A stretch of 39,642 bases of DNA, taken from assembly GCA_020429495.1 (NCBI GenBank), contig JAGQLJ010000002.1, forward strand, positions 1 through 39,642, in the 5' to 3' direction. This stretch comes from Candidatus Dojkabacteria bacterium (GTDB taxonomy: Bacteria; Patescibacteriota; Dojkabacteria; J137). The notes under the pieces were generated by a model, which had not been told where the DNA came from, made no database searches, and worked only from the letters and a program-made list of their open reading frames with translations. A program made the position numbers and the translations under genes. Shown here in pieces: positions 5,608 through 33,800 of this stretch (position 1 is the stretch's first letter; every line of letters starts with the position of its first letter).

Positions 5608-5630
5608 AACATTGTATTGCAATACAAATT
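5608..5630. promoter_or_regulatory. 23-bp motif AACATTGTATTGCAATACAAATT containing a perfect 16-bp palindrome TTGTATTGCAATACAA (5612-5627); copy 1 of 2
   Basis: Read directly. It sits exactly between the convergent stops at 5599-5601 (+) and 5631-5633 (-). A second copy with one central mismatch lies at 11938-11960. It could be an operator, a weak bidirectional terminator or a module boundary. Confidence 0.5.
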
Positions 5631-6290
5631 CTATTTGATCTTATCTAAAAAACTATTCTTCATTTGGTCGTATACAGCTGTATCAATACTTGTTTTGATA
5701 CATTCTTTATATGAATCTGCAGAATTTGGGTCTATGCAACTATTAAATTTACCTTTATCAATAATTTTTGCATCTATTGACATTTTAACTTCAAAATATT
5801 CAGAATCATTTACTGAGATATATGAAAAACTAGGATGAATATCACTATAGTCAAAAATTGGTGATTGTAAATCAAATACTCCTAAAGCAAGCTTACTATC
5901 TGCATGAATTGCTTCTGATTTAATTTCTATTGTAATACCTGCTCCACAAGAATATGCAAACAGATTGAAGTTATCAACGGGATAGTGAGTATTTATATCT
6001 TTTAAATATTCTTCAATATTATTAGAATAGTCAGTTTTGTCTACTTGATTTTTATCTACAGTTGTAAGTGATAAATTAATTTTGGAATTATTATAAAATT
6101 TTGTTCCTGAATTGACAGTACACTCTCCTCCAACATATTCTAAGGAGTTTTTATTTATTATGCTTGTAGATGAAATAGCCTCATGTCTTGTATTGTGACT
6201 TGTGCAAAGTAAATAACCAATGATAACTACTATAACAAATATTACTATAAAAATTGTTTGACTAATCTTTAGTTTATAATTATTTTTCAT
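5631..6290 (-). CDS. hypothetical N-terminally anchored exported protein (219 aa)
   Basis: The track ORF 5631..6425 overlaps the 3' end of the upstream giant gene. The in-frame ATG at 6290 gives MKNNYKLKISQTIFIVIFVIVVIIGYLLC..., a signal anchor. It lies 10 nt downstream of the giant gene's stop (6301-6303). No motif recognised. Confidence 0.6.
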   Translation of the reverse strand: MKNNYKLKISQTIFIVIFVIVVIIGYLLCTSHNTRHEAISSTSIINKNSLEYVGGECTVNSGTKFYNNSKINLSLTTVDKNQVDKTDYSNNIEEYLKDINTHYPVDNFNLFAYSCGAGITIEIKSEAIHADSKLALGVFDLQSPIFDYSDIHPSFSYISVNDSEYFEVKMSIDAKIIDKGKFNSCIDPNSADSYKECIKTSIDTAVYDQMKNSFLDKIK

Positions 6291-6300
6291 ACGATTGTTA

Positions 6301-9300
6301 TTAAAATTTAATAAATGAGCTTGGCCATCTCCAGTCACCCGGAGATAGTATTCTTGTACCAAATGCATGCGTATTTGGCCACCCATTATATTCACTAATA
6401 AGAATATCTCCATTTGAAAATACATATTCTACAAATGCAACATGCCCCACTGGTCCTGTGTATACACTTCCCGTTACTGGATTTGATATACTTCCTTCAA
6501 ATACAGCAACAGTATTTTTTTCAGGAAAACTTTGTACGGTAAATCCTATATACCGTGCATTATCGTCCCATGTATTAGCATTCCCAAATTTACCAGTTAA
6601 ACCATTAGGTCCTTTCATACTATTGCTAAAAAAATAGTATTCAATACTTTGTCCAGGATTAGTAGTTCCTTTTAATTCGTTAACCTTCCAAGCAGCATAT
6701 GAAGTGCATTGTTTTATTATAAAATTCCAATAATCTGCACTAGACGTATCTGCAAGGCTACTAGGGTATGTATTGATCAGATTTAAATCGATACATACAC
6801 CATTATCCATTCTTTCAAATTCATTGCAACTAAGTACCTGACAAGATTTACTATCGTTACTCCATATTTGATCACTTGTGCAAATACTTTCTCCACATAT
6901 CCATCTTGTTTCAAAATCCTGGCATAATCGACCACTATTTTCATCTAAGTGAACACCACCAATTGGAAACCCCCATTTACTTCTTGTGCCTTTTTGTCCA
7001 TTTTCATCTCCCCACTTTTCATATTGTTCAAAGATATTTCCATAAACTGCCCAAGTAGATTTGAACTTGTTATTATGATAAATTCCTCCACGCTCATACA
7101 TTTGGTATGTACCTTTTGTTCCTTGAGGAGATTTTGCCGCATTATTTGGATATTGCATAGTAGGTATACCAAGTAGGTCACATTCACTTGTTCCTTCTAA
7201 ATCATCATAAAATGCAGCTCTGTAGTAATCCTTTTGTAAAATATATACAAAATCATTTAATTTTGAACTGAAGTAAATATCTCCAATAAATTCACCACTT
7301 ACTTTATGAACCTCATATTTTTCAATTCCACAATAGTTCGATGGGTTTGAATATCTATGATCGGTATCATTTAAGATCTTTTGAGTGATGGCATAACGCG
7401 CATAGTTGAAATCAGGTATAGCATAAAAGGCTATATGCTCGTAGGTCCAAGTAGTTGGCCATTTCTGCTGTACGTATTCTTTTTCACTATCACTAATAGT
7501 ATAGAAGTGGTTAGCATATGGATTACTCCAAAAACGATGGACATTAGCTGTATATGGTTCAAGATTTGGATAAGCATAGAACGCAACCTTTTCATATTTC
7601 CAATCTCCTTTTTTACCTGCAAGAACTATATTTTTTTCACCTTCACTCATTGTATAAAAGTGTGCGCTAAGTGAATCACTCCAAAATCTATAAACGGGTA
7701 ATGTTCCTTTCGGTGGTGTCTCACTCTCAATAGGCTCGTATGCATAAAATGCTACACGTTCATATTGCCAGTGGGATGACATATAGTTAATTACGTCATT
7801 CTTTTCATCTTCAAATATTGTATAAAAGTGTCCATTATATATTGGACTCCAGAATCTATAAACAGGTTTCAATTTACTCCATACTATTGGATTTATTTCT
7901 GAGTTTCCATACCCAAAATCCCCTAACTCACTTAATCCTAAAATTACAGGACTATCAATCTCACCATACTGGAAAAGTAATTCTGGATCTATTGGATAAG
8001 CTGAACCATCTGAATTTAATCTATGAGTTTCAAAGTGTAGGTGACAACCTTTTGGCTCATACTCGCTATCTTCGTTTCCCCTAACGTAACCCGTGTTTCC
8101 ACTTGTACCAATTGCTTGACCTTGAGCTACATTTTGACCTGGAACAACATAAACCTGGTCTAAATGCCAATATCTTGTTTGAAATTTATATACCTCTCCA
8201 GTTTCTGGATCAGGGTTAGATTGGTGCTCAATAATTACGTAATTAGCAGGAGTTTCTGGAGTACTATTGTTTCCAATAGCAATTCCATCTGTAGATGTGT
8301 ATAAAACAATACCGCTTGCAGCTGCGTATAGCTCACTCCCACAATATAGTCCATAGTCAATTCCTGTATGGTATGTTCCGTCTCTTCCACCAAAATCGCT
8401 TGTTATGTCTATATCATAATAATCTCCATTTGGATCGGTTCCTGGATCATCATAGGGTCTTACAAATTCAACATAGTCTATCCAGTTATAAACTTGTCCA
8501 TCTTTAGTTATGCATATGAATGAATCAGGTACGTAGCCACTTCTTCCATCAAGCGTTAAAACTTGTAACCAACCATCTCCTTTAGTACTTGGCAATTCTT
8601 CAAGAATATATATTTCTTGATTTAAGTTTAAATATTCAATTATATTACTATCCCAACTTGGATTCGTTCGCATTTCAGTTCTTCTTGCATCACAAACAAA
8701 TGCTTTTTCTCTGTATGTATCATTTGTTAATAAGTTTGGTAGAGTAGTGCTTAAATCTTTTTCGCAGTTTAAATTCTCAATATTTACCCAACCAACTGTA
8801 TTTGGTTTAAATAAAACCTGAGCGTAATCGTTATTATAGTTAAACGCATAAACTGCTGAATTTTTTGCATGAACTACTAACGTATCAGCACCTGGTGCAA
8901 TTAATAAATCAGATTCAGATTTAAGTGTACAAACTACTGGTGCATATTCTCCCCAACCAAAATCATCGTTATTAGTATAGTCTCCTAAAACATTTCCAAA
9001 ATCATCATCTGCTAATATATCTTTTATCTCTAAATTAATTTTGTAAGTTTGAACTCCCTGTGTTGCAAACCAAGTTACACCTTCATGTACAGCATCTAAT
9101 TCTAAAATATATTTTCCAGGCTTGTCTGGTGTAAGTACATTAAGCCTTACGTCATTATAAATAGAATTACTTTGCACCATTGTTGAAAGATGAGCTCTAT
9201 TTCCATTCCAAACATAATAGCTTCCTGTATCTACATTAAACCAATGGTAAGAAAGGTTTGTTGGATTTGCAATTGTGCCTTCTGGATACCAAGGTATTGT

Positions 9301-11892
9301 TCCTGTATTTTTTGCATCAAAAACTAAAATTACTTCTTGATATGTATATAAATCATTTGGAAATGTATTTAGAGAATAGGTAGAGATGATATTTGCATTT
9401 GATATGTAATCATCATTTATATATTCAATTCCATAATATAAATCCACAATTCCAGAACCGGTGTTATCTGGATCATTAATTAAAATATCATCTTTAACTG
9501 TACTAGAAATATTTCCTGCCTCGTCTTTAAATCTTACAAAAACTGTTGCTAGACCTTCTGTTATTCCTAAATTAATTGAATTTAGTTCAATACTTTCAGT
9601 ATTAATTTCGCTAAATTCACTCCAATTTAATCCATCTATACTATAAGAGTAATAAACTGGATTATCAGAATTATTTGAATCTTGAGAAATTACAGCATCT
9701 ACAATACTTAATTGCGTACTTGATTGACCATTATTAATTAAAACACTTCCACTTGGCGCTTTAGTATCTAGAATAATTTGATCACAAGAAAGAGGAGAGA
9801 TATTACCTAATTGGTCTTTAACCTCTACACAAATTTCTTTTAATCCATCAACTGAACCATTCATTAAGTAGTCTGGAAATTCTTGAGTTAATCCAAGTGA
9901 GTCATTCCATTTGCTCCATTCAGATTGTTTGGATTGATTAGTATTTAAATCTTTATATGTATACCGTGCATAATTATCTAAAGAAGCATCAGCTGTTTCT
10001 ACTGTTACACTCTTTTTAATCAAATCTTTTGTTGTGTATTTATCGTTATTATTAATTACAATTGTTGCTTTTGGATTTCTTATAATTAACGTTGCTTGTC
10101 CCACCTCTCGTCTTTGGCTTCCAATACTATTTATATATGTAACTCTAGTTAGTGTTCTTAATACATGACCAGATTTTAATTCAGAATTATTTTCAACTTC
10201 ACCATTAATTAATAAAGTTATTTTTGTATTCTTATCTACATTGCCTAGATTTAGCTGAATAAACTTAACTCCATCAGTATTTATAGTAAGTTCATTTTTT
10301 GAAGTCATACCATTTATTTGAACACTTGCTCCTTCTAAATCTAAGTTTAAGTATTCGGGATAAAAGAATTTTAGAACTAAATCTTTAGTTGGAACTTTTG
10401 TAGGTACTTTTGTTTCAATCTTTAAACTAACTGGAAATCCTTTATTTGTATTAGTTGAGCTAACCCATTCATTTGTTTTGGGATTTAGCACTGTTGTTTT
10501 TGTTGTTACTTTTTCTGTTCTTACTGATTCTGTGTCTGCTTCAGTTGAATTTCCAGATCGATCATCTTCAGTTGAATTCCAATTACTTTCAATCTTGATA
10601 TTGTTACTAAAATTATCTTTAGCAAGTAAATCTGACTCGTTTGAGTAATTTTGCTTTACTAATGCAGTATATTCCAACTCAACCTGTTGACTAAGCCCAA
10701 TATTAGGAACTTGCCAAAATAGAGTAGTTGTACCATCCTCATTTGAGGCTACATTAGCAGCATCAATTGTACTAGAAATAAATTCCAAACCATCTGGAAG
10801 AATGTCTGTTAAAACAACAGAATCAAAACTATAGAATTGAGATGTCTTGATTACAATCTTGTAAGTTATTAGATCTCCAGGATTTACTATAGATTTATCT
10901 GAACTCTTATTTATAGTTATATATTTTGCATTAATACTATCTTGTTTAGATAAATCGATTGTGACTGAATCATCTCCTGTTTCGTATACTGCACTAACAT
11001 TAGTATCAATATTCAATTTTTCATCTTCATTTATAATCTCATCGTTTGATTTAGAGTAAGGGACTCCAATTTTATAAGAGATATTTATTGGATTTTCAAA
11101 ATTATCCTTTTTTAGTTGATCAATAATCCATTGTAAAAATGTTTTTCCATCTGCTTGCTCTTCTGCATTAAACTCAAAGTCTGCAGGATTATCAATATTA
11201 TTTATTAAATCCTCTCTGTTCCATTCAAACTCAACACCATCTTCTAATGTTTCAGATACTGTAACTTTATCATCTACGCTACTATTAACCTCTGGATTAT
11301 TCTTTATTGAAATATTTCTATCTACAGAATCTTCTCCTACTAAAATGTTATTACTAATATTTGTATCAACAGAGTATGCTTTGATTTCTGTAGTTTCTTC
11401 AATTTCTTTAAAAATATCTGATGTAAATATTGGACTGTGAGATGCCTTCGCATTAATTTTAAAATCAACATTATCTCCAATTGCAAAAGTAGGCTCACCT
11501 TCGAATTTTAGCCTTGCAGATACAATAAATTCCTCATCAGGTTGTAAATCTGTAATATTCTCCCAAGCAACTAGATCGTTAGTTTTCTTAGTTGGCTTAA
11601 CTAATTCATTTTCTTCTGGCTCTACTGCTGCATCAAATCTTACTCCGTCTACTAAATTTAAATCTATACCTAAATTATAGACTGGTGTGTCTGTAGTATT
11701 TTTTACTTTAAGCTCTATAATACCAGTGCTACCTAATAAAGGTGGTTCTATAAATTCAGCAGTTAGATCAATTAGGTCTGAATTCTCTAAAATAATAGAG
11801 GCATTTACTGACTGAACAAGAGGACCAAATAGAGTTGAAAGTGTAAAAAGTGAGATGAGAAAAAGCTTTACTATGGTTTTTATGCTTTTCAT
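6301..11892 (-). CDS. giant secreted multidomain peptidoglycan hydrolase: adhesin-like repeats + SH3b + M23 metalloendopeptidase + DUF5648-type repeats + C-terminal CHAP amidase/peptidase
   Basis: 1863 aa. Signal peptide MKSIKTIVKLFLISLFTLSTLFGPLVQSVNA. DUF11-type motif VVLTDILPDGLEFIS at about nt 10770-10810. SH3b-like GWVNIENL and GWLQVLTLDGRSGYVPDSF at about 8525-8590. M23 motifs HTGIDYG at about 8350-8372 and GCHLHFETH at about 8022-8047. Three VYRFWS..HFYT..W.YE.VAFYA repeats. LGFP-like WGFPIGG at about 6950. CHAP catalytic Cys in QCTSYAAWKV at about 6690-6715 and His in GHVAFVE at about 6435-6455. Confidence 0.85.
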   Translation of the reverse strand: MKSIKTIVKLFLISLFTLSTLFGPLVQSVNASIILENSDLIDLTAEFIEPPLLGSTGIIELKVKNTTDTPVYNLGIDLNLVDGVRFDAAVEPEENELVKPTKKTNDLVAWENITDLQPDEEFIVSARLKFEGEPTFAIGDNVDFKINAKASHSPIFTSDIFKEIEETTEIKAYSVDTNISNNILVGEDSVDRNISIKNNPEVNSSVDDKVTVSETLEDGVEFEWNREDLINNIDNPADFEFNAEEQADGKTFLQWIIDQLKKDNFENPINISYKIGVPYSKSNDEIINEDEKLNIDTNVSAVYETGDDSVTIDLSKQDSINAKYITINKSSDKSIVNPGDLITYKIVIKTSQFYSFDSVVLTDILPDGLEFISSTIDAANVASNEDGTTTLFWQVPNIGLSQQVELEYTALVKQNYSNESDLLAKDNFSNNIKIESNWNSTEDDRSGNSTEADTESVRTEKVTTKTTVLNPKTNEWVSSTNTNKGFPVSLKIETKVPTKVPTKDLVLKFFYPEYLNLDLEGASVQINGMTSKNELTINTDGVKFIQLNLGNVDKNTKITLLINGEVENNSELKSGHVLRTLTRVTYINSIGSQRREVGQATLIIRNPKATIVINNNDKYTTKDLIKKSVTVETADASLDNYARYTYKDLNTNQSKQSEWSKWNDSLGLTQEFPDYLMNGSVDGLKEICVEVKDQLGNISPLSCDQIILDTKAPSGSVLINNGQSSTQLSIVDAVISQDSNNSDNPVYYSYSIDGLNWSEFSEINTESIELNSINLGITEGLATVFVRFKDEAGNISSTVKDDILINDPDNTGSGIVDLYYGIEYINDDYISNANIISTYSLNTFPNDLYTYQEVILVFDAKNTGTIPWYPEGTIANPTNLSYHWFNVDTGSYYVWNGNRAHLSTMVQSNSIYNDVRLNVLTPDKPGKYILELDAVHEGVTWFATQGVQTYKINLEIKDILADDDFGNVLGDYTNNDDFGWGEYAPVVCTLKSESDLLIAPGADTLVVHAKNSAVYAFNYNNDYAQVLFKPNTVGWVNIENLNCEKDLSTTLPNLLTNDTYREKAFVCDARRTEMRTNPSWDSNIIEYLNLNQEIYILEELPSTKGDGWLQVLTLDGRSGYVPDSFICITKDGQVYNWIDYVEFVRPYDDPGTDPNGDYYDIDITSDFGGRDGTYHTGIDYGLYCGSELYAAASGIVLYTSTDGIAIGNNSTPETPANYVIIEHQSNPDPETGEVYKFQTRYWHLDQVYVVPGQNVAQGQAIGTSGNTGYVRGNEDSEYEPKGCHLHFETHRLNSDGSAYPIDPELLFQYGEIDSPVILGLSELGDFGYGNSEINPIVWSKLKPVYRFWSPIYNGHFYTIFEDEKNDVINYMSSHWQYERVAFYAYEPIESETPPKGTLPVYRFWSDSLSAHFYTMSEGEKNIVLAGKKGDWKYEKVAFYAYPNLEPYTANVHRFWSNPYANHFYTISDSEKEYVQQKWPTTWTYEHIAFYAIPDFNYARYAITQKILNDTDHRYSNPSNYCGIEKYEVHKVSGEFIGDIYFSSKLNDFVYILQKDYYRAAFYDDLEGTSECDLLGIPTMQYPNNAAKSPQGTKGTYQMYERGGIYHNNKFKSTWAVYGNIFEQYEKWGDENGQKGTRSKWGFPIGGVHLDENSGRLCQDFETRWICGESICTSDQIWSNDSKSCQVLSCNEFERMDNGVCIDLNLINTYPSSLADTSSADYWNFIIKQCTSYAAWKVNELKGTTNPGQSIEYYFFSNSMKGPNGLTGKFGNANTWDDNARYIGFTVQSFPEKNTVAVFEGSISNPVTGSVYTGPVGHVAFVEYVFSNGDILISEYNGWPNTHAFGTRILSPGDWRWPSSFIKF
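7411..7872 (-). repeat. three tandem ~55-codon coding repeats (DUF5648-type, YRFW..HFYT..W.YE..AFYA) inside the giant hydrolase
   Basis: The protein reads KPVYRFWSPIYNGHFYTIFEDEKNDV..WQYERVAFYAY, then LPVYRFWSDSLSAHFYTMSEGEKNIV..WKYEKVAFYAY, then NVHRFWSNPYANHFYTISDSEKEYV..WTYEHIAFYAI. Confidence 0.8.
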
Positions 11893-11937: not shown

Positions 11938-11960
11938 AACATTGTATTACAATACAAATT
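11938..11960. promoter_or_regulatory. second copy of the 23-bp palindromic motif (AACATTGTATTACAATACAAATT)
   Basis: 22 of 23 positions identical to 5608-5630. It lies 46-68 nt upstream of the ATG (11892) of the giant hydrolase gene, a position typical of an operator or activator site near the -35. Confidence 0.5.
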
Positions 11961-12098: not shown

Positions 12099-12252
12099 CC
12101 ATACATTATTAGATAATATTAACCGCCTACGAACGATGGCTACCTTCCTTTATGTTAAATTCTTAAATGTTTATTAGAAACTTCAGTCCATAGAATCATC
12201 ACATAGGTATTTATTTCGTACTTTTGTGGGCACAAAAGTACTGCAAAAAGCC

Positions 12253-12322
12253 TTGGGGTGATAGAATGCCCTTCTCGAGCTTAATCTCAATCTACCAGTT
12301 ATTCGGTACTCTATCACCCCAA
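12253..12322 (+). other. candidate structured RNA element in the photolyase 5' region (13-bp long-range stem TTGGGGTGATAGA / TCTATCACCCCAA enclosing 44 nt)
   Basis: 12253-12265 is the exact reverse complement of 12310-12322. It is preceded by a 10-bp-stem hairpin GTACTTTTGT-GGGC-ACAAAAGTAC at 12218-12241 and ends 45 nt before the ATG at 12368. Confidence 0.3.
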
Positions 12323-12367
12323 ACCCCACATGCTAGTTGAAATTCTTTTCGAATGATACACTAGATT

Positions 12368-15452: not shown

Positions 15453-15517
15453 ATATCTCAAATATTTATTGTTTTCTGCGTATAATATGATAATATCTAC
15501 GCGTTTAATAATAAAAG

Positions 15518-15934
15518 ATGACAGAGAATGGTAACGAACTCTTTGTGAATTTTGTTGAGTCAATAATGACTGGATTGAGATCAGTCGATATTATGGTTCA
15601 ACTTAATGCTAAAAGACGATTATACGAAAAAAGTCTCAATGATCCGGATATAGCTAAAAAATTTGGTGGTGTACAGAGTGCAATTCAAAAGCATATAGAT
15701 GATTATAAGAACCAGTTGGTTGAAGAGAAAACAGGTAGTACAACTACTGCTATTCCTCAGGACAGAGCAGAAAGAATTGCAGCAAGACTTGCTCAAAAAG
15801 AAAATGAGACTCAAAACTTAAGGGATTTAATTGATGCTGCTGCAAAAAAAACTCCAACATATATAGAACGAAATGGATATACAAATGAACCAACTTTTCC
15901 TACAGATGAAGAGGGCAATCCGCTAGAATCATAA
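15518..15934 (+). CDS. hypothetical protein, 138 aa, helical/charged
   Basis: ORF in the track with coding-like composition. No motif recognised. Confidence 0.5.
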   Translation: MTENGNELFVNFVESIMTGLRSVDIMVQLNAKRRLYEKSLNDPDIAKKFGGVQSAIQKHIDDYKNQLVEEKTGSTTTAIPQDRAERIAARLAQKENETQNLRDLIDAAAKKTPTYIERNGYTNEPTFPTDEEGNPLES

Positions 15935-16632: not shown

Positions 16633-17697
16633 TTGATAATGGAACCACATCCAGTCCCACAAGATATTTTAAACACCGAATTTAAACTATTCGGAAGCTT
16701 TACTTTAAAGCAGTTTTTAAAACTGTTAATGGGAGCACTTGTTGCGCTGGTTATTTTTATAGTTCCAATGCCTGCAATAATTAAATGGCCACTAATTGGA
16801 GTATCTTTACTTATTGGTGTGGGATTAGCCATAGTTCCAAGATTTGGAGTGTGGTTATCAAATTATCTTAAAGCAATGTTTATTGCGCCAAGATATGTTT
16901 GGGTACAAACAACAGAAGCTCCAGATGTACTAAATGAGCAAATTAAAAAGACCATTAAAGAGGATCAAAAAGTAAGCAAAAGCAAAAATAGTGATAAAGT
17001 AAATTTGGATGAAATTTCATTAACCAAATTATTATCCGCAAGAGACAATCCAAGAAAAAGCACTCCATTACCAAAACAAGAAACTACTGATGCACTTGAC
17101 GAACCTGTTCGACAAAACAATATAGATAGATTAATGACAGACGTATTTAAAGGACAGCAACCAAAAGTACAACCTACAAAACCAGTTCAACAAGAACCAG
17201 CAAATAATCTACCTGCAGCAACTCCTGCACAGCCAAGAACCCAAGAGGAATATGCAGCTGAAATACAAAAATTAAAACAAGAAATGCAGTCAATTGGCAA
17301 AGATCAAAAATATAAAGATAGAGAAGCCGATATTCTTCACAGAATAAATGATCTTATGCACGAAATGAAAGTACTCGAGAATAATGACAATCAGCAAGTA
17401 CCAGTAAAAAAAATTAATATTACTGATGATATAGAGGGGCAATATGTGTTTGGTATAGTTGTTGATCAAAAAGGCCAACCAATAAGCAATGCACAGATTA
17501 TATTTGACGACGAGGGAGGTAATCGTGATATATTGGCTTTAACAGGAAATGATGGACGTTTTGCAAGTACACAAAAATTGCAGAAAGGAGTTACTTATAA
17601 TATTTCTGCAAAGCACGATGGCTATACATTTCACACATATAAAATTAGTGTTGGTGATCAAAAATTACCAGCATATAAATTAAGAGCAAAAAAATGA
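16633..17697 (+). CDS. PrgI-family (VirB3-like) membrane protein fused to a C-terminal carboxypeptidase-regulatory-like beta-sandwich
   Basis: The N-terminus MEPHPVPQDILNTEFKLFGSFTLKQFLKLLMGALVALVIF plus a second TM is the characteristic PrgI-family start. A Q/P/K-rich linker follows. The C-terminus GIVVDQKGQPISNAQIIFDDEGGNRDILALTGNDGRFAS..YNISAKHDGY fits a CarboxypepD_reg-like fold. Start is TTG 16633 or ATG 16639. Confidence 0.65.
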   Translation: MIMEPHPVPQDILNTEFKLFGSFTLKQFLKLLMGALVALVIFIVPMPAIIKWPLIGVSLLIGVGLAIVPRFGVWLSNYLKAMFIAPRYVWVQTTEAPDVLNEQIKKTIKEDQKVSKSKNSDKVNLDEISLTKLLSARDNPRKSTPLPKQETTDALDEPVRQNNIDRLMTDVFKGQQPKVQPTKPVQQEPANNLPAATPAQPRTQEEYAAEIQKLKQEMQSIGKDQKYKDREADILHRINDLMHEMKVLENNDNQQVPVKKINITDDIEGQYVFGIVVDQKGQPISNAQIIFDDEGGNRDILALTGNDGRFASTQKLQKGVTYNISAKHDGYTFHTYKISVGDQKLPAYKLRAKK

Positions 17698-23671: not shown

Positions 23672-26600
23672 ATGGATAAAAAGAAAATATTAACAATAAT
23701 ACTGATTCTCTTATTAATTGCATCTCTTGGAGCGGGTGGCTATTACTATTATCAAAATAATATAAGCCAGCCAGATACTAGTGTTTCAGATACAGGTACA
23801 GTGAGAAGTGATGGAAAATGTAGAATAGGTTTATATGCTGCTCATGATGCAGTTGCAAGTAACTTAGATAATAGCCGAAGTGCACTACCTTTATCTACAT
23901 TGCAGTCAGCTTTTAACGTTGCAACAAGTAATATTGATGCAAACAATAAAGAGTTAAGAACAATAACATCAGCTGATGGTTTTAATAAATTTGATAATCT
24001 TGATTTTATTTTTATTACAGATGCAAATTTAGGAGAGCAAACATCAACTCCAACTAAGAACTCTGCTGCGCATCAAAGTATTCAAAGTTATATTCAACAA
24101 AAATGGTATGACGGAACAAATCTTATTATTATGGGAGATAGTTCCCAGCATACAGATGGCTCAACAAATGCAAGCGGGCAAACAATTTATGTAGGAGACC
24201 ATGCAGCAGGAACTGCTGGCCCATATACAACAAACATTTCAAATAATACTATTAGATATCTTTATGATCAGCAACTAGGAGGTGGAACTTATTTTCAAGA
24301 GAAAGAAAATTGGGGACATTTTAGAAATAATAGTGGAGAATACTTCTTAGGCTTTACTCCAAGACAAACAGCAACACTAAATGATACTGATGCACCTCCT
24401 TTTATAAATGGTGCTACATTGAATTTTTTAGCAAATACAACACCTGGAATGTTGATTGTTGATAATAACTTTGCAAAATGTATTTATGAGGCACCACTAA
24501 AAGGAGGAGACCCATCAACTGGAAATCAATTTCCAACTGTTCCTTCATATCCCGCATCAGGAAGCTGTATAGCGGCATATATTCAAAAGGACTCATTTGC
24601 ATCAACAGGATATCCAAATAATGGGTTTATGCTTGTTGATGGAAACTATGGAGCAATAACTAAGTCTAAATTAGTAGAAATATTAAATTCATCACCAGAT
24701 TGTGCAAATTCAACAACGCCAACACCAGATCCAACGCCAACACCAGATCCAACTCCTCCACCAGTAAGTGGTCCAGGAGGGCTTATTCTTCAACCTGTGT
24801 GCGTAAATGGAAAACCACAAATTAATGTAACTTGGAATATTGTTCCAAGTCCTGACGGGTACTTTGTAGATGTAGATATTGATGATGCAAATGTTTGGCT
24901 ATTAGATTCAAATACTAACAATTATTTCTGGAACCAAAAAATTTCTGGAGATACAGCAAGTTCAGGTACAAGAACAGCAACTATTCCAACATCATTTAAA
25001 GCATATTATAGTGGAGATCCAAATGTATCACCTAACAATAGAGATGCAATGCCTGAGCTGCAAGAAAATACTAAATATAGAGTAAGAGTTTCATCAATTC
25101 AACCTGCAGGTGGAGGAAATCCAATCGGCGATACAAATGGTCTATCTGTAACAACTGCTTCTTGTACAAAAACATGTTATCAATGTAATACCTCAACCTT
25201 TGCTTGTAGCTCAGCTACAGTGAATACTGAGGTTAGATGCAATGGTTCAGATGGTTACTATACATCAAATTCATTGTGTCAGACTGGTTGTTCAGAACCA
25301 ACAAAGACTTGCTATAAATGTAATACAACATCTTATACATGTTCATTTGAAACTGTATCACAATCAACAAGCTGTAATGGAACATCTGGAACATATTCTG
25401 ATATATCAACATGTACAAATTCATGTAATGAACCAACAAAAACTTGTTATACATGCGATTCAGCAAATAGTACATGTAATGCAGTTCAAGTGTCACAGTC
25501 AACAAGCTGTGATGGAACAGGAACGTATTTTGATGCAGAATCAACATGCCAAACAAATTGTGTAACGCCAACAATCCCTGATCCAACAATAGAGAAAACT
25601 GGAACACCTGGTACAACTGGACCAGAACAAACAGAAGTTTCTTATTCAGTTGTAGTATCAAACACTCATACAGCAGATAGAGTATTTGATATAAAAGATA
25701 ATTTACCTAGTGGAATAACAGGTGCTACAAATATATCTAATTCTGGAACTTATGACTCAGCATCTAATGCAATAACATGGGATGATATTACAATTCCTGC
25801 ATCGGATTCTGTAACTTTGACTTATACACTAACTGTGCCAAGAGCTGCATATGGAAGTTTATTAAATACAGCTCAAGTGCTTGAATCAGACTCATCAGCA
25901 GTAATTACTCAAACAACTGAAACTGTTGAAATTACATATACAAATCTTGAAATTGTTAAAGACGGATTATTAAATGATGTTAATACAAACAATGCAGATA
26001 TTTCATATACTCTGCAAGTTTCTAATCCAAACGATTTTGCTGTACAAAATGCAAGTGTAAAAGATAATTTACCAGTTGGAGTAACAGCTATAAATAATGT
26101 AAATCCTGCAGCAACAACTGAGAATGTAGCAGGAAGAACAATTGAATGGACAGGCTTAACATTTGCTGCATTTGAAACAAAAACATTTACTTATAATTTA
26201 ACAATAGGATCAACTGGATTCTCTCCTGCAGGTCCTGCTAGTGTTGATAATATAGCTGAAGTAGCAGTTGATGGAGTACAACAAGACAATGATGATGAAT
26301 CAATTCCTGTTGATGCAACAACTGCAGCAACAATTTCAAAAGCTTCGACAATTGTTTATTCTGAAGACAGTGTTACTGTTAACTATACAATTACAGCAAG
26401 AAATATTGGTGATACCAATATTGTTGACTACAGCGTTGTTGATGACTTAGATTCAAAAGTTACAGATGCTATGGTTTCTAATATAAGTAATTCAGGAACT
26501 TTAAGTGGAGGATCAATTACATGGTCTAATGTTGATATTAATATAAATCAAAGCCAAACATTCACATATACAGTCACAATACCTAGAACTAGCCCAGGTG

Positions 26601-26974
26601 ACTATAACAATGTTGCAACATTATATGATGCTTCAAATAACCAGGTAGCTCAAGATGATCAAAGTGTAAATGTTCCAGCAATAGTAGTTGTTCAAGATGC
26701 ACCAACGCCAACACCAACACCTACACCAACACCTAGCCCAACGCCAACGCCAAGCAGTCCGGCACCACAACCTGCACAAATTCCAGCAACAGGTCTTGTG
26801 GATGATTCTGGAATATACATAATTTTTGGTTCACTATTATTAATGGCAGGATTAGCAGTGTATAAATTAAGAGTAGGTAAAACAGTATTACAAAAACTTG
26901 GAGCTGAAGACTATACATACGCAGAGCTAGAGATGACAGATAAAAACAAAGTTGAATTAAGAAAAAAGAAATAG
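23672..26974 (+). CDS. large cell-surface protein: unknown N-terminal domain, PT linkers, 3 six-Cys modules, DUF11-type repeats, IPATG sorting-like signal
   Basis: 1100 aa. N-terminal TM/signal (ILTIILILLLIASLGAGGYYYY). PT-rich linkers at about 24714-24765 and 26701-26757. DUF11-like repeats (DIKDNLPSGITGATNISNSG, VKDNLPVGVTAINNV, VVDDLDSKVTDAMVSNISNSG). IPATG at 26780-26794, then the TM IFGSLLLMAGLAVYKL and a charged tail. Confidence 0.8.
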   Translation: MDKKKILTIILILLLIASLGAGGYYYYQNNISQPDTSVSDTGTVRSDGKCRIGLYAAHDAVASNLDNSRSALPLSTLQSAFNVATSNIDANNKELRTITSADGFNKFDNLDFIFITDANLGEQTSTPTKNSAAHQSIQSYIQQKWYDGTNLIIMGDSSQHTDGSTNASGQTIYVGDHAAGTAGPYTTNISNNTIRYLYDQQLGGGTYFQEKENWGHFRNNSGEYFLGFTPRQTATLNDTDAPPFINGATLNFLANTTPGMLIVDNNFAKCIYEAPLKGGDPSTGNQFPTVPSYPASGSCIAAYIQKDSFASTGYPNNGFMLVDGNYGAITKSKLVEILNSSPDCANSTTPTPDPTPTPDPTPPPVSGPGGLILQPVCVNGKPQINVTWNIVPSPDGYFVDVDIDDANVWLLDSNTNNYFWNQKISGDTASSGTRTATIPTSFKAYYSGDPNVSPNNRDAMPELQENTKYRVRVSSIQPAGGGNPIGDTNGLSVTTASCTKTCYQCNTSTFACSSATVNTEVRCNGSDGYYTSNSLCQTGCSEPTKTCYKCNTTSYTCSFETVSQSTSCNGTSGTYSDISTCTNSCNEPTKTCYTCDSANSTCNAVQVSQSTSCDGTGTYFDAESTCQTNCVTPTIPDPTIEKTGTPGTTGPEQTEVSYSVVVSNTHTADRVFDIKDNLPSGITGATNISNSGTYDSASNAITWDDITIPASDSVTLTYTLTVPRAAYGSLLNTAQVLESDSSAVITQTTETVEITYTNLEIVKDGLLNDVNTNNADISYTLQVSNPNDFAVQNASVKDNLPVGVTAINNVNPAATTENVAGRTIEWTGLTFAAFETKTFTYNLTIGSTGFSPAGPASVDNIAEVAVDGVQQDNDDESIPVDATTAATISKASTIVYSEDSVTVNYTITARNIGDTNIVDYSVVDDLDSKVTDAMVSNISNSGTLSGGSITWSNVDININQSQTFTYTVTIPRTSPGDYNNVATLYDASNNQVAQDDQSVNVPAIVVVQDAPTPTPTPTPTPSPTPTPSSPAPQPAQIPATGLVDDSGIYIIFGSLLLMAGLAVYKLRVGKTVLQKLGAEDYTYAELEMTDKNKVELRKKK
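25169..25573 (+). repeat. three tandem 135-nt coding repeats (45-aa six-Cys module KTCY.C....(F/Y).C.......(S/R)C.G..G.Y.....C...C..PT)
   Basis: KTCYQCNTSTFACSSATVNTEVRCNGSDGYYTSNSLCQTGCSEPT; KTCYKCNTTSYTCSFETVSQSTSCNGTSGTYSDISTCTNSCNEPT; KTCYTCDSANSTCNAVQVSQSTSCDGTGTYFDAESTCQTNCVTPT. Confidence 0.85.
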
Positions 26975-27031
26975 TAATATCAACAAATAGAAAAATACTT
27001 CCCCATTAGTTTATTTTTTATAAAATAGCAA

Positions 27032-28252
27032 ATGAGGAAGTTTTTTATTTTAATAGTATGTCTTCTTCTGTTACCAATTTTTATTATTCCCGCTAAAGCG
27101 CAGCAAGTGTCACCTAATCTAATAATTAAAGAAATGATGATCAACCCTAAAGGTGATGATAGAGGAAAAGAGTGGATTAAAGTTACTAATTTGGATAGCT
27201 CAACATTAAATACAGAAGATGTTTATATTTATTCAGAGGGAAGATCAGAAGATATATCAAACTACTGCCCAATAATACAATCTGAAGAAGCTTGCATCAT
27301 AGAGTTCCAAGATTTGTTCTTGCATAATGATTTTGGTGAAATAAATTTGATGTATGATGGTGAAGTTTTAGATGAATTTATCTATAACAAAGAAATTGCA
27401 GATAACACTTTAATTGAGCATATTTCGGAAGATTGGCTGATTACAAACCTAGATGATACTAGTCTAGATGAACAAGAAGTAGATAATAATTTTGAGCTTA
27501 TTTTTACAGAAATCTATCCATCACCAAATGCTGGTGAGGTTGAATGGTTAAAAATTTATAACAACCTTTCAGAAGATTCTCCACTAAAAACAATAACAAT
27601 ACATAGAGATTCTTGTGATTCTGACTTAGTTACAAAGTTTACTGATGAAATAATAATTGCTAATTCGTACTATCAAATTAGCGATTCAATGTTAAAAAAG
27701 AATTTATTAAATGCTGGTGGAACACTGGTGCTTTGTGATGAGGAAATAGAATTAGATAAAGTAACCTATCCAGAAATTAAAAAGGGAGAGTCTTACTATC
27801 TAGAGTCTGGTATTTGGAAAAATTCTGGAGATACAACTTCAGAAGAAAATATAGAAGCTAATCAAACATCTACTATAAAAACTAAAGAAGAAAGTAATAT
27901 TGTTTCAACACCAACAACAAATACAAATACTCAACAGACAAAATTAATTACTAGTTCATCTAATATAGTTCAACCACAAGTTTTATCAGTAAATACAAAA
28001 GAACAAGTAGATATAAAATATGCTTTACCAAATTTACAAAAACAAGATTTGTCTTTAGCAGATAACCAGCCTATTAAATTAAATAGTGGATTTTATATTA
28101 ACCAGAACCTATGGATTATACTTTTGCTAATAAGTCTTACAATCCTATCAACTTTAATCATAAATAATAAAGAATTTTTACTTTACTTTTATCAAAAGAT
28201 AAAAACAGCAATAAAAAACTACGAAAGGCCAGTAGAATATTTTAGGCGTTAG
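27032..28252 (+). CDS. exported protein with two lamin-tail-domain (LTD)-like modules and a C-terminal TM anchor
   Basis: 406 aa. Signal peptide MRKFFILIVCLLLLPIFIIPAKA. LTD-type starts LIIKEMMINPKGDDRGKEWIKVTN and LIFTEIYPSPNAGEVEWLKIYN. T/N/Q-rich linker. C-terminal TM LWIILLLISLTILSTLII plus a basic tail. Confidence 0.7.
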   Translation: MRKFFILIVCLLLLPIFIIPAKAQQVSPNLIIKEMMINPKGDDRGKEWIKVTNLDSSTLNTEDVYIYSEGRSEDISNYCPIIQSEEACIIEFQDLFLHNDFGEINLMYDGEVLDEFIYNKEIADNTLIEHISEDWLITNLDDTSLDEQEVDNNFELIFTEIYPSPNAGEVEWLKIYNNLSEDSPLKTITIHRDSCDSDLVTKFTDEIIIANSYYQISDSMLKKNLLNAGGTLVLCDEEIELDKVTYPEIKKGESYYLESGIWKNSGDTTSEENIEANQTSTIKTKEESNIVSTPTTNTNTQQTKLITSSSNIVQPQVLSVNTKEQVDIKYALPNLQKQDLSLADNQPIKLNSGFYINQNLWIILLLISLTILSTLIINNKEFLLYFYQKIKTAIKNYERPVEYFRR

Positions 28253-30389: not shown

Positions 30390-30812
30390 ATGAATACTGA
30401 CGAAATTAGGTCTAAATTGCATGAAACACTAAAAGAAGCAGGAGTTGAGGGTGATCAAATAGATGTTTTTTTATATCTTTTGCAGCCTTTAATTACTGAG
30501 TATTTACAAATGCTTATTGAAAAAAATATTTCAGAAGCTCAGGCAAACGAACTTGCTCTACAAGGATTAGAAGAAGGATTAGATGAAAAGGAAATTGCAG
30601 TAGCAATGCAATATTTATATGAAGAAAAAACTGGAAAAACATTGCAAGATGAAATAAATACACTTGTTAGTATGTTGGCAGACAACATAAAGGCAATGCA
30701 AACTGAAATGAAACAAAGATTGGATGAAATTATGAGTTTACCAGCAGACCAAAGGCTTGAAGAGTTTCAGAAGGATATTTTAAAAGATTTAGAACCATCG
30801 CAAAATGAGTGA
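30390..30812 (+). CDS. small acidic all-helical protein, first gene of the giant-protein operon
   Basis: 140 aa, E/D/L/Q-rich, with no hydrophobic segment. Its TGA (30810-30812) overlaps the ATG (30805) of the next gene in ATGAGTGA. Confidence 0.6.
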   Translation: MNTDEIRSKLHETLKEAGVEGDQIDVFLYLLQPLITEYLQMLIEKNISEAQANELALQGLEEGLDEKEIAVAMQYLYEEKTGKTLQDEINTLVSMLADNIKAMQTEMKQRLDEIMSLPADQRLEEFQKDILKDLEPSQNE

Positions 30813-33800
30813 TACTCAAAATAATACAAGCAGTGAAGGAAATGTATTTAAAGATATTCAAGATCCTAGAGGAACAGGTGAGGTTATTCCACAAGTAAGA
30901 GTAAGGGTACAAGGTAATACTAGAAGCCTTGTTGATTATCGTGAGAATCCTAATGGAGATGTTTATGATGCAAACGAAATTGATAAAATGGACCTGACTG
31001 CTGAACAAAGAGAGTGGATAGCTAATAGACCTGAACTTAACCCACAATCTAATAATGATAATATACCTGACAATAGAGCCATTCAGCCTACATATAACTC
31101 AGCTCAAAATAATTCAAATAATGAAGATATTATTGAAGGTGAGTGGTATGAAGCAGATGATGATTCTGATATAAATCAGAAAATAGAGCCTAATCAAATA
31201 TCTATTCAGCAAGATGGCTCAACAGTAATCAATGGTGCTCCACCACAAAATCAGAATAATGATAATGTACAACAGGATGATGATGTTATACAAAATGTGA
31301 CTATTGATGATAAAGATTGGAGTAATAGAATAAATAATGCTGGGACAGAAGAAGAGATTAATAATTTAGCTCGTGAATTACAAGGTTTGAACATTGATAA
31401 TAATCAAAGATTAAGGCTTCAAAGGCAAATAAATACTAGAGCTGCTAATCTGTCTAGAATAAATAGAATATCTCAAGCTAATACAGATGAGGATGATAAA
31501 GTAGAACAAGATCGACCGGTTGCTGTACCTGTAGCAAATCTTGATACTAAAGATGATAGTCCAACAGTAACAGCTGATGATTTAGATGACTTAGATACTC
31601 CTGATGATGAAGATATTTTAGATGATATTGATGATGTTCAATTAACAACTATAAGGGAAGCTCTTGTTAGTGTTTATGATCGAACTAGAGAAGGAATAAG
31701 AGAGCGATTAAGAAATAGAAGAGAGGAGCTAAATGTTATTAGGCAAGAATTAATTGATTCTTGGGATGCAAGAACTGAAGATAATACACTTACAAGATTA
31801 GGTGTGGGTATTTTAGGAACAGGAAGAGTTGCACTTGAAAATATTAGGAACTCAAGAACATTGGTAATGAATTTAAGAGAAAAGCTTAGAGGGCCAGAAT
31901 TAACAGATGCTGAAAAAAAAGAAAATGATAGAGCTATAAAAAGGGCATACAAAGTATCAAGAGAAAGTATTCAAAAAGGTATAAGAGGGGAAGACAATAG
32001 TGCTTTTAGAGCAAATCTATTCTATAGATCTACAAGAGGAGTACTTAGAGGTATGCTGCAAACTCAAAGACTTATAAATAGAGTTGAAAATACACAATTA
32101 GGTAGATATATAGCTCAAGCTAGAGTATTAGCAGGTACAAATTCTGATGGTTCTCCTAGATATGAATATACAGCTTTAGGTGACAGCAGACTAAATAGAA
32201 GGCAAAGATTTTGGCTAAATTTTAGAGAACTAACAGGTATTTATAGAGATCAAGATTTTGTAGTCAGAGGAGGGATGAATGTAGCGCAAAAGAAAGAACT
32301 TGCAGATGCAATTGCAAATGCTGGGCTAACTATGAGTGAAGAAATTGCAAGAAAAGGGCGAAGATCTGCAATTAATGCATTTTCAAGTGGTCGGGGAATT
32401 TCGGGCAGATTAAGCAGAACAAATGCAGTAAGAAATGGGATTGCCCTAGGTTTAAGATTAGGGGCATCAACACTTGGTGTTATGGGAATACAACCAGAGT
32501 CACTATATAATCTGACACGTCTAGCAAGTATGACAATTTCTCCATTAGCAACAATTGCTAATAAAAGAAGGGAAATGATTGATAAGTTTGGAACATCAGC
32601 TTGGAAAAGAATGGTTGTTCCAATGACACTTATGTCAGGAATTTCAGGTTACCTTTCTTATCTGGGTCCACTTAGAGAAGCATCTGACAATATTGTAAAC
32701 GATTTATTAGTAAACAGAGCAGGTGGAGTTTTGTTAGATGATGCAAAAAAGCGAACTGCAGAAATGGTTACATCATGGGGGCTTAGATATACAACTAACT
32801 ATATTGCTGGTCCAATACTTGGAACAATGTATGCACTAGTTTATGGTGCAGGAGGTGCGGATCAAGGTCAGGTTGCAGGAAGATGGAAAAGATCAGTTGG
32901 TCTTGGATTAGCATCAGCATCAATTGCTGCTCAAGGTGCATCAATGGCAGGTGCAATTTCATTTGCTTCAGACATTGGATTAGTTAATGCAACAAAAAAC
33001 ATTCTATTTGGAAAACATGTTTCTATAGAAAACTCTCCAGATCCACTTGCAGTATATGAATCTCAAAATTCAGATGGGGCAACAGAGTTACTAGATTCAA
33101 CAAAGGAAATTATTACCTCTTTGGTAGCAGATGGAAATGAAGCAGTAAATTTGCCAAATGGTGATATTGGATATTTGAATGTTGGTGGAGTTCTAGTTCC
33201 ACTAGAGCATCCAAATGTTCCAAAAGGAATTATGAACGATTTGGTAAACAGGCAACCAAATAATATATTTGGTAATCCTGTTGCTAGTGCATCAAGACAG
33301 TTAACAGAAAATGCTGGAATAGCAGGAGATTTATTTAATGGGGTAGATAGAGATCAAGTTGTTGTAAATATAGGTAGCGGCTCTCCTGAATACGTTAGAG
33401 TATCTGGAATAGAACTTGATCCAAATATAAGAGTACCTTGGAATACAGGAGAAAGAACGTTATTAAATGTACCTGATGGAGTTGGAAGCAGTAACTCAAT
33501 GCTTTATTTAGGTCACGATCAAATAGGTTATGGTCTAAATAATGGTGAGGTTAATCTTGTTATGGATCCAGAAAATCCAGCTATACTTAGACAAATTGGA
33601 AATCCAGGAGCTCTTTATTCTGCACCTGAAGTTGAAGCATATATAAATGGAAATACTGTAAATGTTCCTAATCCTATAGGAATTGAAGTATATGGAGAAA
33701 ATGGAGATGTAACCAGAGTACTAAGACATGTAAGCGATGTACCAAACGTTGACGATAGAATATTTGGAGGAGTGGCTACATATCAAGATGCATCTGAATT

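Follow-up and report, generated by a model that had tools for sequence, protein, structure and literature searches.

Contact-dependent inhibition (CDI; CdiA-CT/CdiI) and Rhs (Rhs-CT/RhsI) are polymorphic toxin systems that are accompanied by orphan arrays. Lysostaphin and zoocin A are bacteriolysins (class III bacteriocins), in which a secreted M23 enzyme is combined with a wall-targeting domain (SH3b or similar) and acts against other bacteria, and immunity to bacteriolysins is, as far as is known, based on FemABX-like modification of the producer cross-bridge, not on an anchored binding protein. A Serratia Rhs paper deals with Rhs toxins (PMC10539506). Two other sources describe TelC-TipC of Streptococcus intermedius, an LXG toxin of a type VII secretion system (T7SS) that acts outside the membrane together with a membrane-bound immunity protein (PMC6193138), and the Tae/Tai pairs of type VI secretion systems (T6SS), such as Tae5/Tai5, which are peptidoglycan amidase effectors with immunity proteins (10.1101/2020.02.18.954545). 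In the Bacteroidales antibacterial toxins BSAP-2 and BSAP-3, a DUF5648 propeller is the glycan-recognising, target-defining, receptor-binding domain (10.1101/2025.01.06.631476). In this study, we analysed a 39,642-nucleotide (nt) stretch of a Candidatus Dojkabacteria genome (contig JAGQLJ010000002.1 of assembly GCA_020429495.1; hereafter the window), focusing on two adjacent genes, both on the reverse strand, as are all of their domains given below. The P0001 gene (6301..11892) encodes a secreted modular effector of 1863 amino acids (aa), and the P0027 gene (5631..6290), an open reading frame (ORF) that starts 10 nt past the P0001 stop, encodes a 219-aa type-II membrane-anchored protein that is a candidate cognate immunity or partner protein. 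On balance, we favour the interpretation that P0001 and P0027 form an effector-partner module of the polymorphic-toxin type in an ultra-small bacterium of the Dojkabacteria (Patescibacteria, or candidate phyla radiation). No description of such a system was found in the literature on Patescibacteria or Dojkabacteria with polymorphic toxins or peptidoglycan hydrolases.

The P0001 family resembles CDI and Rhs systems in having a conserved trunk, a sharp junction motif and unrelated C-terminal modules in close relatives. The closest relative, P0003 (locus L002 of a congener), matches P0001 at 77% identity across residues 1-1699, with no relationship beyond them, and its locus is syntenic (photolyase - effector - small gene - histidine kinase). 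DNA identity between the two loci is 80-93% down to position ~6970, decays through a Cys-rich linker (C1666, C1671, C1684, C1689, C1700; 6793..6897) and remains at ~40%, the random level, from ~6850 to 5627. Similarity resumes at a common 28-nt palindromic motif right after each small gene, and then reaches 83-95% in the 3' end of the kinase gene. Since the DNA breakpoints bracket both the tip and the small gene, the replaced unit is exactly these two, about 1.2 kb in length (5627..6850). We hold with high confidence that the tip and partner gene constitute an exchangeable cassette. The cassette showed no compositional anomaly (GC content 0.30, compared with 0.32 in the trunk, with similar GC at third codon positions), and thus nothing in the data points to a recent foreign origin.

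The 3' edge of the cassette, just past the P0027 gene, is marked by a 16-bp palindrome, TTGTATTGCAATACAA (5612..5627, without strand), which sits within a conserved context of ~22 nt, CATTGTATTGCAATACAAAT. A second copy with one mismatch was found at 11942-11957, ~50 nt upstream of the P0001 ATG, and coincides in part with a weak promoter-like match; scanned for promoters and terminators, the locus did no better than shuffled sequence. The palindrome is also kept after the partner gene in L002. It occurs in 7-9 copies genome-wide, so it is not locus-specific, and it looks like an operator or a recombination landmark. The L002 locus contains one extra gene (262 aa) between the small gene and the kinase gene. 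This gene (L002 8687-9475) and a 379-aa gene of another congener (L003 12861-14000) define a second anchored-protein family (E=2e-10), which follows the first partner gene in two congeners with different tips and has no member in the window; its members could serve either as additional immunity-like genes or in a conserved accessory role.

We then compared the family across about ten loci, mostly with one genome per species. An alignment of eight sequences, consisting of P0001 and seven full-length relatives (P0003-P0009), revealed a common core that runs from residue ~610 through the M23, DUF5648 and LGFP-like parts up to the junction. The junction motif, LCQ(D/E)F(E/D)GG..C, has Q1658 and F1660 as its invariant residues. 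Past this motif the family members have nothing in common, and at least five tip types are present in the eight sequences. According to Pfam, the CHAP tip is found only in P0001 of this window. An M23 tip, type 'b', is carried by P0003 (genome G056) and by genome G058 (the two 46% identical), and it is distinct from the M23 tip of P0006, type 'c'. P0009 ends in a papain-like Peptidase_C39_2 tip, to which the tips of P0004 and P0005 can be added by similarity, and P0008 ends in a Vps62/NPP1-like tip. P0007 and genome G061 carry a ~300-aa module of unassigned family, and the more distant G075 appears, by eye only, to have a NAGPA-like tip.

The original prediction had described a dual-hydrolase architecture for P0001. 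This architecture is not fixed across the family, whose C-terminal modules, at least six in number and CHAP among them, are interchangeable; CHAP is an exchangeable tip and not a fixed second hydrolase. The region before the tip (residues 1495-1666, 6895..7410, ending in LCQDFETRWIC) is 84-94% identical to P0003. This pre-tip region was found in 11 of 221 genomes of the class and in all four species of the window's genus, whose tips are CHAP, M23 (two species, 46% identical) and an unassigned one with an alignment to the C39_2 tips. When the pre-tip region served as query in a focused homologue search, only P0001 and P0003 were recovered. At two loci, L044 of G058 (~10950-11060) and L045 of G061 (~9680-9920), an in-frame TAG or a break in the frame interrupts the effector gene immediately upstream of the pre-tip region. 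Possible causes are pseudogenisation, a scar left by recombination or a fault in the assembly.

After each tip examined comes a protein of 160-380 aa with a single N-terminal hydrophobic helix, mostly after a gap of less than 25 nt or with an overlap. All 18 small downstream proteins at eight loci have this N-terminal transmembrane helix, as does the G075 partner, against a baseline of 7.3% of tight same-strand downstream neighbours in this genome with an N-anchored form. The partners are mostly unrelated to one another, and where a tip family recurs, its partner family recurs as well. This was seen for three tip families: M23 'b' (partners L002_233, L006_265 and G058_181; E 7e-19 to 1e-48), M23 'c' (L004_208 and L006_227; E 3e-7 to 4e-7) and the unassigned tip of P0007 and G061 (L008_310 and G061_197; E=3e-13). 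A small gene that lies directly downstream and co-varies with the tip, as observed in these three families, is a further likeness to CDI and Rhs.

The closest matches to the P0001 CHAP tip within the class are secreted stand-alone CHAP proteins of 200-243 aa, which are up to 52% identical. Stand-alone CHAP genes in six other Dojkabacteria are followed within 30 nt by an N-anchored protein of 186-235 aa at all six loci, and two giant proteins with an N-terminal CHAP have no anchored protein downstream. CHAP plus an anchored partner is thus a recurring unit in the class, because all six stand-alone loci have it, and the CHAP tip of P0001 may derive from such a pair. At L047, L015, L017, L019 and L021, the stand-alone CHAP and its anchored partner lie within a conserved cluster of 3-4 genes, which also includes a tail-fibre-like protein upstream (C-terminal WPDYVF..Y.L..L....HLPNIP) and another secreted protein of 200-300 aa.

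Start-less orphan tips, each followed by a matching partner, were found in L006, L004 and G058. Downstream of P0008 in L006, three elements lie in this order: a start-less M23 'b' tip, whose sequence starts within the pre-tip region, and its partner; an M23 'c' tip that is broken, likewise paired with its partner; and one more remnant of the junction, the third. In this array (L006 11940-15720), ~190 nt of pre-tip and Cys-rich-linker DNA are repeated at ~98% identity (~12150-12330 and 15480-15680), and a shorter copy lies around 13750. Remnants of this kind were also found in L004, after P0006, and in G058, and the junction motif is also present at the 5' end of orphan cassettes. Extra partner-like genes without any tip pile up downstream of the relatives' loci. 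Start-less orphan cassettes of tip and partner downstream of the locus, with junction DNA in common for recombination, are another feature that these relatives have in common with CDI and Rhs. One orphan tip in L006 is split into two ORFs.

These orphan cassettes also bear on whether the partners are antidotes at all. They might instead be cognate accessory factors, such as membrane docks, export or folding helpers, or tip activators, since co-variation and tight linkage fit any specific protein-protein partnership. P0001 has no anchor of its own, which a membrane partner could supply, and Pfam gave weak sub-threshold PsbP-like matches in four of ten partners; the PsbP fold is used by binding or chaperone proteins. 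However, partner genes lie beside start-less or broken tips, which is typical of retained immunity genes, whereas a helper of an enzyme that is not made would not be expected to persist. The accumulation of tip-less partner-like genes downstream of the loci also argues against helpers. We consider an accessory role unlikely and, by analogy with known effector-immunity pairs, lean towards the anchored partner being an immunity protein.

The effector itself largely agrees with its first description. The 1863-aa ORF and the four motifs that had been quoted for it (HTGIDYG, GCHLHFETH, QCTSYAAWKV and GHVAFVE) are all in the translation. Its proposed secretion was borne out by a Sec-type N-terminus: residues 1-31 (11800..11892) have the basic N-terminus, hydrophobic core and AxA-like site of a signal peptide with a predicted cut after VNA (VNA/S), a call made by eye. 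About 1000 residues of DUF11/Ig-like repeats had been proposed to follow. Pfam detects a single DUF11 (CLIPPER) beta-sandwich, at residues 325-450 (10543..10920; E=4e-10, or E=9e-11 for the segment alone), so the DUF11 part of this claim shrinks to one domain, while the tandem beta-sandwiches are present in an AlphaFold2 model. These Ig-like sandwiches occupy residues ~606-960 (9013..10077; AlphaFold2 and Foldseek), at the start of the core that is conserved across the eight family sequences. The model of residues 606-1135, built on the 8-sequence alignment, is all-beta with tandem sandwiches and two small barrels; its mean predicted local distance difference test score (pLDDT) is 72, with values of 80-93 over the first ~200 residues and lower ones beyond. 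Foldseek matched it to adhesin extender, BIg (giant adhesins) and macroglobulin arrays. The two small beta-barrels (residues ~985-1040 and 1074-1125; 8518..8940) are SH3b-like in the model, and the second matches Pfam SH3_3 with 26.2 bits, just under the curated cut-off of 27. An LGFP-like repeat at residues 1581-1632 passes its cut-off of 22 bits, with a score of 24.8, if this segment is the sole query. Both the SH3b-like modules and the LGFP-like motif had been anticipated.

Both expected hydrolase domains were found by Pfam, and the alignment showed that their catalytic residues are kept. The M23 peptidase of the constant trunk (residues 1174-1291, 8020..8373; E=2e-15) has its HxxxD and HxH zinc ligands and catalytic His (H1175, D1179, H1243, H1284, H1286) invariant in all eight family sequences. 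The CHAP domain (residues 1721-1836, 6385..6732; E=5e-13 and 49.7 bits, where the cut-off is 26; E=1e-13 with the tip as sole query) has the catalytic set C1729 (QCTSY), H1817 (GHVAFVE) and E1834 with N1836 (ISEYN), and its His/Glu region aligns to the staphylococcal CHAP structure 5t1q. Between the M23 peptidase and the pre-tip region lies DUF5648 (residues 1343-1491, 7420..7866; E=7e-34). What had been counted as three DUF5648 repeats are the three blades of one domain: the match spans profile positions 1-133 of 134, and DUF5648 has been described as a three-bladed propeller with a glycan-binding role (10.1101/2025.01.06.631476). By analogy, the propeller of P0001 is likely a glycan- or receptor-binding module.

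DUF5648 is the most divergent part of the trunk. Over residues 1343-1516, and in the third blade especially, identity to P0003 is 32-60%, compared with 80-98% in the neighbouring trunk, and the N-terminal 450 residues are also more divergent (46-80%). At the level of sequence, this pattern suggests diversifying selection or recombination acting on target-recognition parts. P0001 resembles BSAP-2 and BSAP-3 in carrying a DUF5648 propeller. In contrast, BSAPs are MACPF pore-formers with a C-terminal propeller, whereas in P0001 the propeller is internal and the proposed killing modules are hydrolases. P0001 also resembles lysostaphin and zoocin A in joining a secreted M23 to SH3b-like wall-targeting domains. 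However, no FemAB-type match was found by Pfam or NCBIfam among the neighbouring genes, P0027 included, and bacteriolysins are not known to have an exchangeable second enzyme or orphan cassettes.

The trunk also sets P0001 apart from CDI and Rhs systems, as it contains a constant M23 with intact catalytic residues together with a propeller of the glycan-binding type. The tips of the family are predicted extracellular envelope hydrolases and not nucleases, deaminases or NADases, and no known immunity family includes the partners, which are anchored in the membrane. By Pfam, the P0001 locus contains no type V secretion system, T6SS, T7SS, RHS/YD, filamentous haemagglutinin, PAAR, LXG or WXG component, and neither P0001 nor its neighbours have VgrG or MIX domains; P0001 has a plain Sec signal. 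Neither a sortase signal nor a C-terminal anchor was found in P0001 that would support the earlier idea of a stalk on the producer surface acting at a distance.

M23 and CHAP domains are common among autolysins, and P0001 has weak NCBIfam similarities to ShyA, MepM, PcsB and DipM. The genome encodes four Mur ligases and therefore builds its own peptidoglycan; it has four M23 proteins and one CHAP, the tip of P0001. P0001 could accordingly be imagined as a housekeeping autolysin for growth or division of the cell's own wall, with P0027 as a membrane regulator and the tip differences as ordinary domain shuffling. The NCBIfam scores, however, are all far below the curated cut-offs, and the trunk is patchy, as the 11 of 221 class genomes with the pre-tip region show. 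The tips are swapped for unrelated chemistries, including the non-peptidoglycan-type Vps62/NPP1-like and NAGPA-like modules, the relatives have orphan cassettes and recombination repeats, and the glycan-binding propeller is hypervariable. We consider a housekeeping role very unlikely and retain the effector-partner interpretation.

P0027 has a strong N-terminal hydrophobic helix (residues 12-30) and four Cys in its outside domain. Because basic residues precede the helix, the protein is predicted to be N-in, C-out. It has no Pfam or NCBIfam match, and with its transmembrane helix this agrees with the original prediction of a small anchored protein without recognisable motif. Four points led to the assignment of P0027 as the cognate partner: its position, its topology, the fact that the exchanged segment includes it, and how analogous genes behave. 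The proposal that it is an immunity or inhibitor protein gained from the joint replacement of tip and downstream gene, from the co-variation within the family and from the orphan cassettes of relatives.

In partner topology, the nearest analogue is TelC-TipC, given that display on the outer face is predicted for P0027 and for all 18 partners. An immunity protein on the outer face of the membrane would be needed because the toxin acts in the cell-wall compartment of a monoderm-type envelope. TelC differs from P0001 in that it is a lipid II phosphatase exported by the T7SS via an LXG domain. The Tae/Tai pairs are similar in that a peptidoglycan-cleaving effector is neutralised in the wall compartment by the cognate protein of the adjacent gene, which for P0027 is proposed. 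Unlike P0001, the Tae proteins described there are small stand-alone effectors that are injected into the Gram-negative periplasm by a contractile machine.

Several results weigh against an effector-immunity interpretation of this locus. No homologue of P0027 was found in 220 class genomes, in 5.8 billion clustered proteins (word-indexed search) or in 1.84 billion representatives (phmmer), so the immunity proposal cannot draw on the conservation of P0027 itself. An hhalign comparison of P0027 with a profile of the six stand-alone-CHAP partners gave no match, and the AlphaFold2 model of P0027 alone (pLDDT 41) is confident only for the helix at residues 5-35 and otherwise uninformative. The partners of the three C39_2-type tips have no detectable mutual similarity. 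No orphan cassette was found in the window or in the rest of the source genome, which has one pre-tip region and one CHAP. Furthermore, the constant M23 of the trunk has no obvious immunity gene of its own, and the co-variation of tip and partner would also fit a cognate accessory factor.

With 182 contigs, the source assembly totals 1.08 Mb at 83% completeness, and the closest homologues of P0001 are annotated as Candidatus Dojkabacteria. The P0001 and P0027 genes form an isolated pair, flanked by a histidine kinase gene in convergent and a photolyase gene in divergent orientation. Pfam assigned the neighbours of the locus as histidine kinase, photolyase, UbiA and RecX genes, all of them chromosomal housekeeping genes, and found no phage or secretion-system genes adjoining the pair. 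This context matters for a phage origin, in which the locus would be a prophage or phage-derived lysis module made of a multidomain endolysin and a holin- or spanin-like protein. Dual catalytic domains with SH3b do occur in phage endolysins, and there is one observation of DUF5648 on an endolysin, from an enterococcal prophage. Yet P0001, at 1863 aa, has a Sec signal and an adhesin-like trunk, the 219-aa single-pass P0027 is unlike holins, the locus is chromosomal and syntenic in congeners, and its flanks hold no phage genes. We found a phage origin hardly credible, and the prophage reading was rejected on gene context.

Other genes of the window encode further proteins of interest. Additional large surface-type proteins were found at 23672-28252 and 30805-36360: one of 1100 aa that contains three DUF11 stretches as well as a pilin-tip-like Ig match, one of 406 aa bearing Lamin-tail and T-Q ester-bond domains, and one of 1851 aa without any Pfam match. 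At 16633-17697, a PrgI-family protein (VirB3-like, type IV secretion system) is fused to a CarboxypepD_reg/Big_1-like domain and lies apart from other type IV secretion system genes in the window. The gene at 1933-2898 encodes a member of the NNMT/PNMT/TEMT methyltransferase family (Pfam E=9e-24), an uncommon find in bacteria.

Taken together, the data suggest a working model for the effector-partner module. On the evidence of its signal peptide, P0001 is exported by the Sec pathway. The Ig-like trunk would give reach, and the SH3b-like barrels, the LGFP-like repeat and the DUF5648 propeller would bind wall or surface glycan. The constant M23 and the variable tip, here a CHAP amidase/endopeptidase, would then cut the envelope of the bound cell, which may be a host or a competing Dojkabacteria cell. 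P0027 would reside in the producer membrane with its ~185-aa domain outside, and would block the cognate tip at the producer's own wall. Sequence evidence, in the form of the junction repeats and breakpoints, supports the entry of new tip-partner cassettes by recombination in the conserved pre-tip and linker DNA and in the sequence past the partner gene, so that tip and partner are gained and lost together.

Little has been learnt of the ways in which bacteria of the candidate phyla radiation breach host cells, feed on them or compete for them, and only a small number have been cultivated. The family described here offers concrete candidate factors for attack and self-protection, which can be tested in surrogate hosts. 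If the interpretation is true, it would extend the principle of polymorphic toxins to a phylum for which no description was found, with a plain Sec route and extracellular hydrolase tips, and the partners would add new natural inhibitors for three kinds of wall hydrolase, namely CHAP, M23 and papain-like enzymes. A more tentative possibility, which we rate well below the module itself, is that Dojkabacteria, and possibly Patescibacteria at large, own a Sec-dependent polymorphic effector-immunity system, in which a common adhesin-like trunk with a constant M23 'wall opener', a diversifying, target-choosing DUF5648 and a swappable envelope-degrading tip are combined with a new class of tethered extracellular inhibitors, setting host range and/or exclusion between strains on a shared host. 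If such a system exists, the propeller and the tip-partner sets would be primary determinants of episymbiont-host specificity.

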